In this document: in pieces, positions 1,086-14,878 of the stretch | How the letters are laid out: each line of letters starts with the position of its first letter | How positions within the stretch are numbered: the first letter of the stretch is position 1 | Origin: Gemmatimonadota bacterium | Lineage (GTDB): Bacteria > Gemmatimonadota > Gemmatimonadetes > Gemmatimonadales > GWC2-71-9 | DNA: 64,000 bases | Assembly (NCBI GenBank): GCA_036679645.1 | Contig: JAZDCY010000014.1 | Coordinates: 1 to 64,000 of the forward strand | Direction: 5' to 3' | Notes under the pieces: model-generated | Told to the model about the DNA's origin: nothing | What the model saw: only the letters and a program-made list of their open reading frames with translations | Databases searched by the model: none | Program-made: the position numbers and the translations under genes

Positions 1086-1105
1086 AGTCGGGACGGCCGG
1101 ATTCG
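1086..1105 (-). repeat. 20-bp fragment of the tRNA-Pro 3' end (acceptor and T-stem strand)
   Basis: AGTCGGGACGGCCGGATTCG is identical to 1206..1225. Confidence 0.85.
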
Positions 1106-1162
1106 GATCATTAGCCGCGAGCCGCTAGGCGAGCGGCGTTGACGAAAACCGGGCGGCGCGGC

Positions 1163-1205
1163 CACAAACACGAAACGCGGGCTGAGGCCCGCGTTCGTGT
1201 TTGTG
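1163..1205 (-). terminator. Long hairpin, probable terminator downstream of the original tRNA 3' end
   Basis: CACAAACACGAA(A)CGCGGGC-TGAG-GCCCGCGTTCGTGTTTGTG, a 19-bp stem with one bulge. Confidence 0.7.
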
Positions 1206-1251
1206 AGTCGGGACGGCCGGATTCGAACCGGCGACCCCCTGAACCCCATTC
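1206..1251 (-). repeat. att site: 46-bp duplicate of the tRNA-Pro 3' half (anticodon loop to 3' end)
   Basis: Matches 3878..3923 with 3 differences: a compensatory pair in the T-stem and one T-loop base. Confidence 0.9.
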
Positions 1252-2181: not shown

Positions 2182-2803
2182 GTCCGCTCAGAACGCTGCT
2201 TAGCTCAATCGAGATGAACCTCCATGGACTGATCATTGAGTATGTCTCGGTTGAGTCCAGTCCAACGTGGAGCCCTCGAAACGTAACACTATCACTGAAG
2301 CCATCCCAAGAAAAAACCGGACCGCCGCTATCCCCCCCAGCACCGAAGTACGTCGCCTGGGTCTGGCACAGGAGATCAGCCGTGACAGAGTCGGCCGGCT
2401 TCTGGTACCACCCGAGATTGTCGACGCATGTTCCGTTGACAGTGCCCTGCCTTCCACCGCCGTTGGCTCCAATCTTGTAGACAGCAGCGCCATACGCAAG
2501 CAGCGTCAGAGGAGCGTCGCTGATGAAGAATCGCGGCTTGCTGCTGTTGATTGTCGTGCTTCCAGTGAAGTTCGTCGTCCGTGCGATGATGCCAAGCTGT
2601 CCTGTCACCCCAGTCTCATAAAAGATGTAGGCGACGTCGCTGTAACGGCAACCGTCTGGCGCAGAACAGTTCATACCGGGCGGAAGCAGAGGGGGATCGG
2701 CGGTCTCAAAGCCGACGAGGTTGCCTCCTCTCGAGCTGTTCTGGTAGCACGCTCTCGCCCCGGTCGTCCCCCACCAATTGTCATCGGTACAATGAGACGC
2801 GGT
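2135..2803 (-). pseudogene. Chymotrypsin-like (S1) serine protease, catalytic domain only, 5' end deleted
   Basis: The frame of the listed 2135..2674 ORF stays open upstream and gives TASHCT (His codon at 2792..2794), CRYSDVA (Asp) and GGDSGGPVF (Ser). No signal peptide or start codon precedes TASH. Confidence 0.75.
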
Positions 2804-3840
2804 TGTTGGTTGCGGCGCTTCTCACCGGGGAAGCGCGCGAGATCGGGAGCGGTAAGATCACGCTCCAGCAGCTCTGGGAGCGTTTCCAGCGCGAGGCTCC
2901 CAACTTCCTCGACAATCACCCGAGAACCAAGCGCGACGCGGCGGGCAGGGCCAAGGTCCTCTTGGCATTCTTCGGCGAGGACTGCGATGTCCGGCCCCTC
3001 ACGGCGCGCGACCAGGCCGCGTACACGACGCAACGCGTGGCAGGCGGCATATCCTGCGCGCACGGTCGCGTCACTCCTCCGGTGCGCGCGCGCTCGGCGG
3101 AGGCGGACCTGGTGCTTCTCCACGCCATGCTGGCGTGGGCCACCACGGTGCGGCTACCGCACGGCGGTCGCTGGTTGGACCACAACCCCCTCGCGGGAGT
3201 CCGCAGAATCCGCGAGGCCAACCCGAGCCGGCCGGTTGCCACGTGGGAACGCTACCAAGCGACCCGCAAGGCGATGCAGGACCTAGCGGCTGCAGCAAGG
3301 TCCGAAACGGACCGAACGCGCTGGACCAGGGTGGAGCTGGCCCTGGTGTTGGCGGAGGCCACCGGCCGGCGGCTCGGCTCCATCAGGCAACTGCGCTGGG
3401 ACGACATCGATCTCAAGCGTGGGACCATTCGCTGGCGGGCCGAGGCGGACAAGAAGGGGCGGGAGTGGGTAGTTCCCCTACCCCCGCGCTTGCTGAAGGA
3501 GCTGAAGCAGTTTCAGCGCGCGCTCGGGGCTGTGGGTGGCTGGCTGTTCGCGGCCGAGAAGGACCCCGACCGGCCGATGGACCGGCACCTGTTCGACAAG
3601 TGGTTGCGTGTTGCGGAGCGGGCCGCGGAACTTCCGAAGCTGGAGGGCGGGCTATGGCACCCCTACCGGCGCAAGTGGGCCACGGAACGAAAGGGACACT
3701 CCCTCAAGGACGTGGCCGCGGCTGGCGGCTGGCAGGACACCGAAACGCTCTTGCAGTGCTACCAGCAGCCTGATAACGAAACGCTCCTCGCGGTGATGAG
3801 CGAGGAGCGCAAGTTGCGGGAAGTAGCGTCTGGGGCCTGA
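2803..3840 (+). CDS. Tyrosine recombinase/integrase, probably missing its N-terminal arm-binding region
   Basis: TGRR (R), DKKG (K), WHPYRR (HxxR), GGW and CYQ (Y). Adjacent to the tRNA att site. No RBS or ATG at the 5' end. Confidence 0.9.
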   Translation: MLVAALLTGEAREIGSGKITLQQLWERFQREAPNFLDNHPRTKRDAAGRAKVLLAFFGEDCDVRPLTARDQAAYTTQRVAGGISCAHGRVTPPVRARSAEADLVLLHAMLAWATTVRLPHGGRWLDHNPLAGVRRIREANPSRPVATWERYQATRKAMQDLAAAARSETDRTRWTRVELALVLAEATGRRLGSIRQLRWDDIDLKRGTIRWRAEADKKGREWVVPLPPRLLKELKQFQRALGAVGGWLFAAEKDPDRPMDRHLFDKWLRVAERAAELPKLEGGLWHPYRRKWATERKGHSLKDVAAAGGWQDTETLLQCYQQPDNETLLAVMSEERKLREVASGA

Positions 3841-3865
3841 GAAACGGCACCCCAAACGGCACCCC
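3841..3865 (+). repeat. Tandem 12-bp repeat pair, putative integrase arm-type site
   Basis: GAAACGGCACCCCAAACGGCACCCC between the integrase stop and the tRNA end. Confidence 0.7.
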
Positions 3866-3879
3866 GGTGTTGTAAGTAG

Positions 3880-3953
3880 TCGGGACGGCGGGATTTGAAC
3901 CCGCGACCCCCTGAACCCCATTCAGGTGCGCTACCGAACTGCGCCACGTCCCG
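3880..3953 (-). tRNA. tRNA-Pro(GGG)
   Basis: Reverse complement CGGGACGTGGCGCAGTTCGGTAGCGCACCTGA-ATGGGGT-TCAGGGGGTCGCGGGTTCAAATCCCGCCGTCCCGA folds as a cloverleaf; CCA is not encoded. Confidence 0.97.
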
Positions 3954-4434
3954 AGATCTACAACCTACTACGAAAACCGAACCCCATTCAGGTGCGCACG
4001 CCGTCGCGGAGCGAAGCGACGCGCGTTGGGGGTGCGCCGCCGAGGCGAACGTGCGAGCCGGCAGGCGAGCGCTGAGCCTCGGGGGACGCACTCAACCGAA
4101 CTGCGCCACGTCCCGAGATCTACAACTTACTACGAAAGCTGAACCCCATTCAGGTGCGGCACAACGTCGCGGAGCGACAGCGACGCGCGTTGGGGGTGCG
4201 CCGCCGAGGCGAACGTGCGAGCCGGCAGGCGAGCGCTGAGCCTCGGGGGACGCACTCAACCGAACTGCGCCACGTCCCGAGATTTACAACCTACTACGAA
4301 AACCGAACCCCATTCAGGTGCGTCACACAACGTCGCGGAGCGACAGCGACACACGGCGGCGGTGACGCCTGCGAGCCGCCAAGGCGAGCGCTGAGCCTCG
4401 GGGGACGCACTCAACCGACCTGCGCCACATCCCG
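3954..4434 (-). repeat. Three tandem 155-164 bp units, each a tRNA-Pro 5' half split by a structured insert
   Basis: tRNA 5' ends recur at 4115, 4279 and 4434; anticodon-arm pieces at 3979..3997, 4139..4158 and 4305..4322; a 25-nt linker is shared. Confidence 0.92.
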
Positions 4435-7388: not shown

Positions 7389-7730
7389 ATGAAACTACCG
7401 CCCATTCCGACCTCAACTGATCTGCATAGCACCCTTCGCGCAACTCGTGTCGCACGCCGTATTAGCCAGGCTGCGCTTGGGAAAAACATCGGTATGGCCC
7501 AGGGCCAGATATCGCGCATAGAACGGGGTCTCAGCGATGCACAACTCTCCACTATCCAGAACATCGCGGGAGTGCTCGACCTCCAGCTAATACTCGTCCC
7601 ACGACCACTCACTCCGGTGGTCAAAGCACTCGTAGAGGATTTCACTCTTGCTCAGGACCCGTCAGCTGCCAGTCCAAGCCAGGCTGAGCGTCCACTGTAC
7701 AGGATCGCAGAGGAAGAAGATCATAGCTAG
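7389..7730 (+). CDS. hipB: XRE-family HTH antitoxin (HipB-like)
   Basis: ISQAALGKNIGMAQGQISRIERG HTH, directly upstream of hipA. Confidence 0.8.
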   Translation: MKLPPIPTSTDLHSTLRATRVARRISQAALGKNIGMAQGQISRIERGLSDAQLSTIQNIAGVLDLQLILVPRPLTPVVKALVEDFTLAQDPSAASPSQAERPLYRIAEEEDHS

Positions 7731-7746
7731 GCTAACCACACCGGCA

Positions 7747-8955
7747 GTGACCGTGCTCGAGGTTTTTCTCGGTGATGATCTCGTCGGGACGCTGACACAT
7801 CTTCCCGATGACCGAACACTCTGGACTTTCGATCCCAACTACATCGCGAACCCGGTACGACCGACTCTGAGCTTGTCGTTCAAGACCGCATCTGGGCAGC
7901 TCGTGAGGACGAATCGGCCGAGCAGTCTAAAGGTGCCCCCCTTCTTTTCTAACCTCCTTCCAGAGGGGCACCTGCGAGAGTACCTCGCAACCCTAGGCTC
8001 CGTAAATCCTGAGCGAGAGTTCTTCTTGCTGTGGCTTCTCGGCGAGGATCTTCCTGGAGCAGTCCGCGTGCATCCGCTGGCCGGTCACACGATTCCACCG
8101 ACCGCAGCCACCACGACAGGGGATCGAGATCCTGGGAAGCAAGCTCTGAGATTCTCGCTGGCAGGTGTGCAGCTCAAGTTCTCGGCCGTTCTCGAAACCC
8201 AGGGAGGTCTGACGATACCGGCCCGCGGAGTTGGTGGCAGTTGGATCGCAAAGCTCCCGTCGGCGAGATACGCTGCTGTTCCCGAGAACGAGTATGCCAT
8301 GCTGGCGCTAGCTGAAACGGCTGGAGTGACCGTCCCAGAATCACGGCTCGTTCCACTCGAAGAGCTTCACAACTTGCCGAAGGGTGTTTTTTCCGGTAGC
8401 GGCCTAGTCCTGGTCGTGCGACGTTTTGACCGCGGTCCCGACGGCGCTCGGATTCATATGGAAGACTTCGCTCAGGTGTTTGGCCAATACGCCAACCGAA
8501 AGTACGAACGAGCCAGTTACGAGGACATCGCACGCGTGCTCTGGGCGGAAACCGGTGAGGAAGGTGTCGCAGAATTCACGCGACGACTGGCCGCGACCGT
8601 CTTGATTGGTAACGGCGATATGCACCTCAAGAACTGGTCGTTGCTTTACTCCGACCGTCGCACGCCCGCGCTGAGTCCGGCGTACGACATGGTGAGCACC
8701 ATCGCATATATCCCGGAACCCCAGCTCGCGCTAAGCCTCGGCGGGACCAAGTCGATGCTTGAGGTAGACGAAGATGTCTTCCGCCGCTTCGCACGACGAG
8801 CCGACCTGCCTGATCGTCTGATCGCGGCTGTTGCGCGGGAAACAGCACAGCGTCTCCGCGAGGCATGGGCCACACATCCCGCCACAGATATGTTGCCGAG
8901 CTCGGTCCGTGGCGCCGTCAGCAACCACATGGATCGAGTGCCGCTGGGCCGCTAG
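7747..8955 (+). CDS. hipA: HipA-family kinase toxin (start uncertain)
   Basis: PPFFSNLLPEG couple domain, SLAGVQLK, GNGDMHLKNW, SPAYD. Confidence 0.93.
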   Translation: MTVLEVFLGDDLVGTLTHLPDDRTLWTFDPNYIANPVRPTLSLSFKTASGQLVRTNRPSSLKVPPFFSNLLPEGHLREYLATLGSVNPEREFFLLWLLGEDLPGAVRVHPLAGHTIPPTAATTTGDRDPGKQALRFSLAGVQLKFSAVLETQGGLTIPARGVGGSWIAKLPSARYAAVPENEYAMLALAETAGVTVPESRLVPLEELHNLPKGVFSGSGLVLVVRRFDRGPDGARIHMEDFAQVFGQYANRKYERASYEDIARVLWAETGEEGVAEFTRRLAATVLIGNGDMHLKNWSLLYSDRRTPALSPAYDMVSTIAYIPEPQLALSLGGTKSMLEVDEDVFRRFARRADLPDRLIAAVARETAQRLREAWATHPATDMLPSSVRGAVSNHMDRVPLGR

Positions 8956-13454: not shown

Positions 13455-13895
13455 CTACTGATCGACCAGAGGATTCACGACGCGAAGAAACTGAAACTGG
13501 TGGAAGTCCGTGTCGGCGGTGCGAATCTCCGGAATACCGTGCTCCCTCATCAGCACGGCAGTGTGGAAATCGTGCACGGGATTGCCGGAAAGCCGGGGAT
13601 GCCGCCCGGTCAACTCCTCGAGCACCTCCCCGTGACGATCGGTTTCCACCAGCAGACCCGCGCGCGGCGAGGCCAGGAGCACGCCAATCCAGTTCCATGC
13701 GGTACGCAAGTCGAGCGGCTCGGCAAAGACGCTTGGATGCGTGCTCACGCGCAGAAACTCGTACACGATTCCCCACGTCACAAACCACGACCGGTCGCCT
13801 CGCCGCCAGGTCTCGAGCAATCCATGCGCGCGGCCGTGGTCGGGCGAGTCGGGGTTTACCGCATACAGTAGGAGGTTCGTGTCGACCACGAACAA
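13455..13895 (-). CDS. vapC: PIN-domain toxin (VapC-like)
   Basis: VVDTNLLLYA, YEFLRV.TH, GN.VHD, TADTDF. Confidence 0.9.
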   Translation of the reverse strand: MFVVDTNLLLYAVNPDSPDHGRAHGLLETWRRGDRSWFVTWGIVYEFLRVSTHPSVFAEPLDLRTAWNWIGVLLASPRAGLLVETDRHGEVLEELTGRHPRLSGNPVHDFHTAVLMREHGIPEIRTADTDFHQFQFLRVVNPLVDQ

Positions 13896-13898
13896 CGC

Positions 13899-14126
13899 TT
13901 ACACGCCTTCCATGGCCCGATAAAGAGCATCGCGATCGGCCAAATCCACCTTGGGGCGCCCCATTGGGTGGGTCGGCAACGGCGCGAGGTTGTCGACCTC
14001 GGCGGGCGCCTCCAATCCCCGGCGCACAACCTCCGCTACCACAGCGGAAAGCGTCTCACCCTGGCGCGCCGCCCGCCGCTTCAGCCGGCGCATGAGATGA
14101 TCCGGAATGATGAGCGTCGTCTTCAT
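13899..14126 (-). CDS. RHH antitoxin (VapB-like)
   Basis: MKTTLIIPDHLMRRLKRRAA..G.TLS; directly upstream of the PIN gene. Confidence 0.85.
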   Translation of the reverse strand: MKTTLIIPDHLMRRLKRRAARQGETLSAVVAEVVRRGLEAPAEVDNLAPLPTHPMGRPKVDLADRDALYRAMEGV

Positions 14127-14151
14127 ATGAAAAATCATACTTGCCATATGG
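14123..14151 (-). promoter_or_regulatory. Operator pair and -10 box of a probably leaderless TA transcript
   Basis: Palindromes TCATATGA (14123) and CCATATGG (14144) are 21 bp apart; TATGAT lies 7 nt before the ATG on the minus strand. Confidence 0.6.
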
Positions 14152-14203
14152 AAATTCGTCAATGCAGGTCGCACCCCTCGGGGCGGCTGGACCCCACCTC
14201 ACC

Positions 14204-14614
14204 TCAGACCAACTCCGCCAGCACCGACTTCGGGGTCGCGGCACGTACCGGGGACTTCACGTAGTCCCGCACGTTGCGGGTCGCGATGACATCCGCCCCG
14301 CACGCCTCCGCGGCCACAACCTGCATGGCGTCCTCGAAGTCCTTGAGGGCGAGCCCCGCCGCACGTCGCAGGCCCGCCGTTTTTGTCGAGGCGACCTCGA
14401 CAAAGCGCAACAGTTCGAGCACGAACTCCCGCGCAGAGGCCCCGCCCCGTGAGGCCGCAACGAGGTAATAGAAGTTGGACGCCGTGTGCCATGCCACGAA
14501 CCCGGCTCCTAATCCACGCTGCAAGGCGTCGAGCAACTGGGCCGCCGGCTCCGCATGCGGCGTGCGGTCGAGTGCCACGTCAATCAGGACATCGGTGTCT
14601 AGCAGAACGATCAC
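14204..14614 (-). CDS. PIN-domain toxin (PIN_3-like)
   Basis: LLDTDVLID, DFEDAMQ, IATRNVRDY; GTG start overlaps the antitoxin stop. Confidence 0.9.
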   Translation of the reverse strand: MIVLLDTDVLIDVALDRTPHAEPAAQLLDALQRGLGAGFVAWHTASNFYYLVAASRGGASAREFVLELLRFVEVASTKTAGLRRAAGLALKDFEDAMQVVAAEACGADVIATRNVRDYVKSPVRAATPKSVLAELV

Positions 14615-14832
14615 AGGTACTTCTTGGCCAGGGCCCGGTATCGCGGATCCTTGCGCCCCGTGGACCGAAACCGCCCACGCCACCGCTCGGCAAACGAACC
14701 GGCCTGCTCGACACTCATCGCCCGCAGGGCCTGCTCGATCACGTGCGACAACGAGACACCGCGTGAGGCAGCATACAGCTTGGCCTGGGGCACGAGATCC
14801 TCATCTATCGTGATCGTGAGTTTGGTTTTCAT
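14611..14832 (-). CDS. RHH antitoxin (DUF6364-like)
   Basis: MKTKLTITIDEDLV..AK.YA..RGVSLS; ends in RYRALAKKYL. Confidence 0.85.
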   Translation of the reverse strand: MKTKLTITIDEDLVPQAKLYAASRGVSLSHVIEQALRAMSVEQAGSFAERWRGRFRSTGRKDPRYRALAKKYL

Positions 14833-14847
14833 CAGGGCCTCAACACG

Positions 14848-14878
14848 TATACGTATAGACAACTATAGTATACGTATA
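14848..14878. promoter_or_regulatory. Two perfect TATACGTATA palindromes, putative antitoxin operators
   Basis: 14848..14857 and 14869..14878, 21 bp apart, just upstream of the antitoxin start. Confidence 0.7.

Follow-up and report, generated by a model that had tools for sequence, protein, structure and literature searches.

The 64,000-nucleotide window of a Gemmatimonadota genome analyzed here carries, on its minus strand and upstream of an intact tRNA-Pro(GGG) gene, an array of three head-to-tail units of 155 to 164 bp, each containing a 5' part of that gene interrupted by an insert. We interpret the units as probable, though far from certain, relics of a tiny non-autonomous element that targets tRNA loops; its cassette would restore the gene that it enters, tandem amplification would have come later, and its mobiliser is an enzyme that we infer.

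Anatomy of the array and its leader

Each unit proceeds from gene nucleotides 1-21 to an insert of 91 to 100 nt, then to nucleotides 23/24-41/43 and finally to a 25-nt leader, with base 22 of the gene replaced by the insert in every case (nucleotides are numbered along the gene rather than by the Sprinzl scheme). The three tRNA-Pro 5'-half copies split at the D-arm that the initial annotation described are thus present (Table 1), and the distal unit is the most diverged, as it had also stated: unit 3 shows 138 identities over 150-152 positions, a 12-nt deletion and two changes in nucleotides 1-21, and units 1 and 2 agree at 157 of 162 aligned positions (97%). TRF resolves the array into 3.1 copies of period 164 with a 90% match and a score of 774.

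Table 1. Positions of the array, its parts and the neighboring island remnant in the window
Feature	Positions	Strand	Details
Live tRNA-Pro(GGG), intact	3879..3953	-	ARAGORN; Rfam RF00005, 64.8 bits
Unit 1, proximal, 162 bp	3954..4115	-	Repeat and alignment analysis; gene nt 1-21 at 4095-4115; D-loop insert; gene nt 23-41 at 3979-3997; cassette leader at 3954-3978
Unit 2, 164 bp	4116..4279	-	Layout of unit 1; right end of insert differs
Unit 3, distal, 155 bp	4280..4434	-	
Insert 1, 97 nt	3998..4094	motif strand + (anti-tRNA)	4009-4019, mini-hairpin containing tandem G.A pairs; 4053-4070, another tandem-G.A hairpin, within long stem
Insert 2, 100 nt	4159..4258	motif strand +	Motifs at 4172-4183 and 4217-4234
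Insert 3, 91 nt	4323..4413	motif strand +	Motif positions 4338-4349 and 4371-4389; part of long stem deleted
-10-like hexamer TAGGTT	3962..3967	-	8 nt before live tRNA; predicted promoter element
-10-like hexamer copies	4124-4129; 4288-4293	-	TAAGTT; TAGGTT
Tyrosine integrase, N-terminally truncated	2803..3840	+	PF00589, E 2e-14
attR-like displaced tRNA-Pro 3' fragment (gene nt 31 to end)	1206..1251	-	Island-remnant end; repeats
Arm-type repeats	1350-1375; 3839-3864		Repeat search
3'-side sister module	1086..1205	-	Long hairpin at 1163-1205; family-hairpin motif at 1117 on +; second T-loop-to-3'-end copy at 1086-1105

The array is genuine, and its true length may exceed that in the assembly. 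Unitigs from run X1, probably the source sample, span all three units with zero differences, and 142 bases of unit 2 (4141-4282) were recovered from run X2, of another study, without a difference at a depth of 2.6. These difference-free reads rule out the assembly artefact that had been envisaged at the outset and support three units. They also hint at more: depth in X1 is 395 over the segment shared by units 1 and 2 versus 88-108 in the flanks (about 4-fold), so that the array may be under-assembled, with approximately four copies of this segment where two were assembled, an estimate qualified by the fact that metagenome depth also sums related strains.

The 25-nt leader adjoins the live tRNA gene and ends each unit, as initially reported, but it does not precede the distal unit, the flank of which is unrelated to it and has no TAnnnT within 4-22 nt. 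This arrangement indicates that the leader before the live gene is, judged by its sequence context, a part of the cassette rather than native flank. Leader and distal flank were dissimilar (negative score) in 11 of 12 loci, and cassette leaders compared across genera gave a mean best score of 9.5 versus 2.6 for shuffled sequences (2.75 versus 1.35 for native leaders). A TAnnnT hexamer precedes the live gene by 4-22 nt in 12 of 17 loci, against 5.2 expected (p 0.0012), and occurs in 7 of 16 native leaders; the hexamer variants of the window and of a related array, L113, retain the T, the A and the last T. Since no -35 element was found at the leader, and a promoter/terminator scan yielded no full sigma-70 site, its promoter function is predicted only. 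Matches of the leaders to an IHF-like consensus had 2-5 mismatches, were no better than those of the flanks in several loci and gave no clear signal.

These comparisons bear on the simplest account of the array, a passive local duplication of the native leader and the 5' half after a single insertion, with no promoter brought by an element. The 97% identity of the tandem units 1 and 2 and the copy-number variation suggested by read depth would agree with it, but the leader differs from the distal flank and resembles leaders of other genera, which largely refutes it, and the same insert occurs in a second gene and, with other leaders, in other genomes; we consider this account very unlikely.

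The duplicated 5' part matches its host gene. Nucleotides 1-21 of the dead and live copies are identical in 17 of 17 loci (kin loci among them are not independent), including 6 of 6 minority variants, and a random other locus matches in 36% of cases. Such a match could also stem from gene conversion or co-inheritance. The gene contains four GGT motifs, three of which are occupied by inserts; the leader junctions lie at nt 41 or nt 57, both GGTTC, or at nt 50, GGTCG. Leader junctions and insert sites taken together, all four motifs thus serve as breakpoints. The leader break is at nt 41 in the units of the window and at nt 50 or 57 in most cassettes of relatives. With its cassette-borne leader, -10-like hexamer and intact gene downstream, the arrangement has the features of a gene regenerated with parts supplied by an element.

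Recurrence in the source genome and in relatives

A genome search with the insert showed that the same family splits a dead 5' half of another isoacceptor, tRNA-Pro(TGG), at the identical D-loop position (source genome G000, C32:5301-5433), where it is flanked by TGG-specific sequence of that isoacceptor; here a 330-bp arm-like spacer is present, and the hairpin sits within the dead half that a longer element left behind. Further sites were found in 3' fragments on C6, after the T-loop GGTT of a tRNA-Lys fragment and, as a solitary copy, on C5. Of approximately nine sites in this genome, all but one are within tRNA fragments, and when 4 or more flanking pairs are required, the core motif has nine matches in the whole genome, four of them in tRNA-Pro fragments. 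This rarity and near confinement exclude a genome-wide REP; the suggestion that a REP or MITE of this kind had landed once is likewise contradicted by the presence of the family in the second isoacceptor gene.

Other tRNA genes of this genome show comparable layouts. Upstream of the live initiator tRNA-Met gene, its 5' end is present in two further copies of 85 bp (C9:139426-139598), each followed by a different hairpin insert, and a related hairpin occupies the equivalent tRNA-Met place in G223 (L176) and G161 (L179). Downstream of the tRNA-Gln(CTG) gene at C28:30250-30440, and likewise of its fragment at C6:9050-9200, come a long hairpin, then a short module and then a repeat of the stretch from T-loop to 3' end, the same 3'-type layout in another tRNA. 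A tRNA-Lys(CTT) 5' fragment (nt 1-55; C7:187380-187478), 8 kb from the live gene, ends at the T-loop GGTT and continues into a family-like hairpin.

In an unbiased search with the tRNA as query, 4 of 30 relatives had a copy of nt 1-40 located 150-180 bp upstream of tRNA-Pro(GGG), and all four of these small duplications carry a hairpin insert after the anticodon-arm GGTT. Of 401 genomes of the order, 11 contained the anticodon-site junction pattern and none its reversed control; the D-site pattern is genuine in 2 of 401 genomes of the phylum, one chance match (G301) having been dropped. Among the 32 matches of a GTDB scan for the D-site junction, four are Gemmatimonadota records, one of which is the L009 locus; L074 represents a different small-insert variant, and 27 were rejected as chance, as unrelated 5' copies (L080 and L084) or as intact tRNAs whose D-loop reads GGTTG. 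A metagenome scan gave 12 matches: one true array (L113), two orphan modules (L104 and L106) and nine chance matches in coding DNA. Because the genomes sampled are incomplete and the patterns were exact, the counts for relatives are lower bounds. BLAST of the whole array against 40 relatives returned six weak matches, all in coding DNA, and two scans of viral contigs returned one chance match and none, respectively.

Across related Gemmatimonadota, insertions in tRNA-Pro occur in the D-loop, the anticodon arm and the T-loop, each directly after GGT. Two inserts, in D-loop plus anticodon or anticodon plus T-loop positions, occupy a single copy in L009, L044, L071, L097, L125 and L156; arrays occur at L018, L090, L113, L119, L121 and L125; the dead copy extends beyond the anticodon arm to nt 50-57 in many relatives; and in G161 a cassette is approximately 1 Mb from an intact gene. 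Some related observations concern other arrangements. Orphan right-end modules (L104, L106, L183, L184 and L126) continue into 9-18 bases of tRNA-Pro remote from tRNA genes, several just after kinase/TPR genes. Tandem or single 3'-side tRNA-Pro(GGG) duplications with T-loop modules are seen at L029, where the assembled tRNA-Pro(GGG) gene is itself cut short, and at L118 and L173. L084, a Saprospiraceae record, is a long tandem array of the tRNA-Pro 5' end (period, ~60 bp) unrelated in sequence to the insert family. Intact tRNA-Pro genes of several phyla (L075, L076, L077, L081, L087, L088, L091, L093, L094 and L101) have a GGTTGA D-loop, which occurs naturally, if uncommonly, and resembles the insertion junction.

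The recurrence also bears on a two-stage history, in which the dead halves and leaders are shrunken 5'-type islands, of the kind that carries in a promoter and a 5' half, the hairpins are later REP-like colonists of dispensable fragments, and slippage made the array. Islands with 5' fragments do exist (159 of 3919 in PMC4383910) and occur at tRNA-Pro of relatives (L046, L053 and L071), the units of the window end at nt 41, as does the true 5'-type island junction in L071, and the leader of unit 2 is 2 mismatches from the IHF-like consensus. Hairpins are also present in ordinary attR fragments (L059, L175 and L178), which, with the dead half and arm-like spacer at G000:C32, shows that they can arrive after duplication; an island-first, hairpin-later order thus does occur at C32, at L071 and in the attR fragments. 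As a general account it is weakened by the break of most cassettes at nt 50 or 57, outside the anticodon crossover, by the 25-45 bp between dead half and next copy, far below island size, by the hairpin in every small duplication of the unbiased sample, and by the poor discrimination of the IHF-like match noted above. Moreover, the 5' parts match in all 17 loci, whereas the integrase-made 3' pair of the window, live gene versus attR copy, differs at 3 of 46 bases. We regard this history, the strongest of the alternatives, as unlikely, if worth serious consideration, and continue to prefer a small element that inserts into tRNA loops.

The integrase-made pair belongs to a 2.7-kb island remnant downstream of tRNA-Pro, comprising a tyrosine integrase, arm-type repeats and an attR-like 3' fragment; the 3' half of the live gene was supplied by this island, and its T-arm differs from that of the attR copy. 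The integrase aligns solely to residues 86-431 of a 96%-identical relative (L113), approximately 85 N-terminal residues being absent, and the DNA homology ends at 2805, from which we conclude that it is truncated. The view of the array as a scar of mobile DNA at a tRNA gene is supported; this integrase, proposed as a possible cause, was probably not its maker. Of 19 cassette loci, 4 have a window-type integrase after the gene, the other 15 giving no match to it (10 with >1000 bases downstream, 5 too short to tell), and a Pfam integrase match was obtained in 1 of 25 loci. That the units form a decoy attB array, or record misrecombination by this enzyme, is consequently most improbable. Two of the closest arrays (L113 and L097) do adjoin the same integrase, and the units, rather than stopping where the att homology begins, overlap the attR-like fragment by 11-13 bp across the anticodon loop; but the 3' strand of the anticodon stem (its right half) is broken in units 1 and 3, the dead copies of relatives run to nt 50-57, and a crossover in the anticodon leaves the D- and T-loop inserts unexplained.

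The sister module on the 3' side has a hairpin with a fold z of -6.8 and a near-copy at G000:C6:112151-112295. Window positions 1086-1251 and C6:112130-112295 are near-identical attR-like fragments with a long hairpin, a family hairpin and a duplicated 3' end; since the window starts contig C7 and the twin sits at the end of C6, this suggests tandem islands across an assembly break. An ORF at 2135-2674 on the minus strand, with no Pfam match and apparently cut by the same deletion as the integrase, contains a GDSGGP motif, which we take to be typical of trypsin-like serine proteases.

Insert structure and comparison with known systems

The comparison covered 27 distinct inserts, taken from 24 loci: 11 lie in the D-loop, 13 at the anticodon site and 3 in the T-loop. 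All start with TG or G after GGT(T), a conservation partly built into the search patterns, and T is the last base in 22; the inserts are modular, variable in their left hairpin and conserved in the module on the right. The motif GCGN1-2AGC occurs on the anti-tRNA strand of 21 inserts (42 copies) and on the tRNA strand of 2, versus a mean of 10.2 and a maximum of 19 inserts in 300 dinucleotide shuffles, numbers to be read with the caution that the motif was first seen in G000 and that kin and array copies are not independent. Its usual form, stem-GA-GC-GNA-GC-GA-stem, was found 18 times on the anti-tRNA strand and never on the other. Among the loops of the 42 copies are 28 GNA triloops and 14 tetraloops, 5 of them GNRA.

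On the tRNA strand, the inserts do not fold significantly better than shuffles, contrary to their initial description as structured (z of -0.53 for the unit as RNA; -0.97, -0.97 and -0.02 for the inserts as DNA); on the opposite strand, insert 1 has a z of -2.09. Over the 27 inserts, the mean z for the anti-tRNA versus the tRNA strand is -3.15 versus -1.75 with RNA parameters and -1.64 versus -1.15 with DNA parameters; the anti-tRNA strand thus scores better with either parameter set, and energy alone does not favor DNA. Covariation analysis gave just 2 compensatory pairs, both from one sequence, and 17 of 500 shuffles scored equally high. It is the near restriction of the mini-hairpins to the anti-tRNA strand that points to single-stranded DNA rather than to a tRNA-mimic RNA. 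DNA mini-hairpins of the forms GCGNAGC and GCGNNAGC, described for the phage G4 origin, ssiA and the N4 promoters (PMC13037366), have loop forms identical to those of the inserts, and the insert copies toggle between loops of 3 nt and loops of 4 nt; the single example that the paper cites of such a form is much less stable as RNA. The likeness is one of structural motif alone and does not imply an origin or N4-type promoter function.

That the units yield tRNA-mimic RNAs, for instance to decoy anticodon nucleases, or represent a spliced tRNA intron is a highly improbable reading. Its attractions are the position of the inserts in or beside loops, the D-stem left pairable, the -10-like hexamer in each leader, from which units 1 and 2 might be transcribed, and PIN-domain genes 9-10 kb away. 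However, the unit folds unlike a tRNA half and, as RNA, no better than shuffles; the anticodon arm is incomplete, the conserved motifs are on the opposite strand and no Rfam family other than tRNA was detected in the array region; PIN genes, moreover, are common and absent from most loci. An intron is rejected because the interrupted copies are truncated or degenerate, have one base replaced and match no Rfam family, and an intact gene lies beside them or elsewhere. In six RNA runs, 6-8% of the words were present, probably from the tRNA only. The window also encodes a HipB/HipA-like pair and two PIN-domain toxin-antitoxin pairs (7389-8955 and 13455-14862).

By layout, the inserts resemble the CGTC-tagged REPs and the SRM-NTS repeats associated with Ssn GIY-YIG nucleases (PMC3733652; PMC11893778), which are small hairpins oriented on one strand with no dedicated transposase known. 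Ssn nucleases are reported to cut single-stranded DNA a few bases 5' of their own hairpin, on one strand only (PMC11893778). The strand-specific short hairpin is shared (21 versus 2 of the 27 inserts), CGTC stands directly 5' of the mini-hairpin stem in the units of the window, where it precedes one module type only, and a GAGCGNAGCGA core is common to the inserts and to TGTC/CGTC-tagged repeats flanking small GIY-YIG genes in 3 of 11 GIY-YIG loci (L142, L143 and L147) of two relatives (G017 and G075). In contrast to SRMs, which have many extragenic copies, the inserts are few (the approximately nine sites of G000), confined to tRNA fragments at fixed tRNA-loop sites and accompanied by a gene-restoring leader, and no flanked ssn gene was found with them. 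Across the 11 GIY-YIG loci (10 relatives and G000) and three G000 loci, no small GIY-YIG gene was flanked by the same repeat, the shared core being limited to the three loci named, and none of the 11 contained the insert modules of the array. The published SRM pattern had no match in the array; it also misses the tagged repeats flanking the GIY-YIG genes of relatives and is therefore uninformative. No tagged SRM-like repeat was found in G000. We therefore speak of a resemblance in sequence layout; membership fails, the copies being too few and a flanked gene lacking. The word "tRNA" is absent from the main text of PMC11893778.

A search of the cassette neighborhoods for a mobiliser, covering 101 ORFs from 25 loci (of 106, five duplicates from an overlapping locus having been dropped), gave zero GIY-YIG or Y1 matches, and no mobiliser gene was found inside or beside any cassette. 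The five GIY-YIG and four Y1 matches of G000 are not flanked by the insert family, and a terminal-module scan, positive in 4 of 301 genomes, revealed no autonomous form among them. Three Y1 (HUH) genes of G000 have palindromic repeats of their own in a REPtron-like layout (C50:400-1290, C92:24800-25600 and C53:97150-97750), and the C50 locus abuts a short 5' fragment of a tRNA(CAT) gene at C50:3001. With the GTAG REPs, REPINs and BIMEs that are paired with RAYT transposases of the Y1 HUH type (PMC3733652), the inserts share modular palindromes, dimers, tandem amplification and a presumed single-stranded intermediate; they differ in not being spread between genes, none of the 27 has a GTAG end, and the four Y1 genes of G000 have unrelated flanks.

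Islands that leave 5' tRNA fragments (Islander, PMC4383910) likewise combine an upstream 5' fragment, a regenerated gene downstream and tandem stacking. Islander, as described there, requires an integrase and at least 2 kb, whereas the units of the window span 155-164 bp and contain no ORF; those of the family are 0.15-0.3 kb long and gene-less, with hairpins inside the fragment, and break at four GGT motifs instead of one crossover site. The TLRs of Escherichia coli (PMC8144298) are likewise tandem and include part of the tRNA gene next to them, but they repeat 18-19 bp of the 3' end downstream, whereas the array repeats the 5' part upstream with insert and leader; only module 1086-1205 fits the TLR pattern. 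In the available text of PMC9897764, tRNA fragments are ascribed to islands and to CRISPR, and the term "hairpin" does not occur. In the literature searched, we found no description of hairpin-split 5' tRNA copies with a replacement leader; the supplementary SRM lists of PMC11893778 and repeat tables of PMC3733652 may bear on novelty.

Candidate mechanism and implications

Our current working hypothesis is that the element inserts just after GGT in tRNA-Pro loops and would survive there by means of its cassette, which duplicates the 5' part of the gene, adds a leader with a predicted -10 element and leaves a live gene downstream. The anti-tRNA strand would act as single-stranded DNA, folded by the GCGN1-2AGC mini-hairpins and tandem sheared G.A pairs, and a small nuclease or transposase acting in trans would nick at GGT-N-S motifs, the insert replacing one base. 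The best candidate enzyme would be an Ssn-type GIY-YIG protein or, failing that, an HUH enzyme. A second break at another GGT-N-S could then join the foreign leader to a local copy from nt 1 onward, restoring the gene, and recombination between direct repeats would amplify the unit, so that the newest copies would lie nearest the live gene.

A broader and distinctly more tentative proposal is that these cassettes represent an undescribed class of gene-less, single-stranded DNA elements with GGT targets in tRNA loops, repair by host-templated duplication and an element-borne promoter, for which an Ssn GIY-YIG protein would serve in trans as a new kind of transposase. No mobiliser is known for the small palindromic repeats of the CGTC type according to PMC3733652, and PMC11893778, which raises the likeness, gives Ssn nucleases no known role in moving their own repeats. 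The base-precise, fixed target sites, the relatives with empty sites and the defined motif strand make the question of mobilization directly testable. Fragments of this kind mimic island ends and can mislead both tRNA and island annotation. Should the leader be a working promoter, an element of 160 bp would control a tRNA gene.
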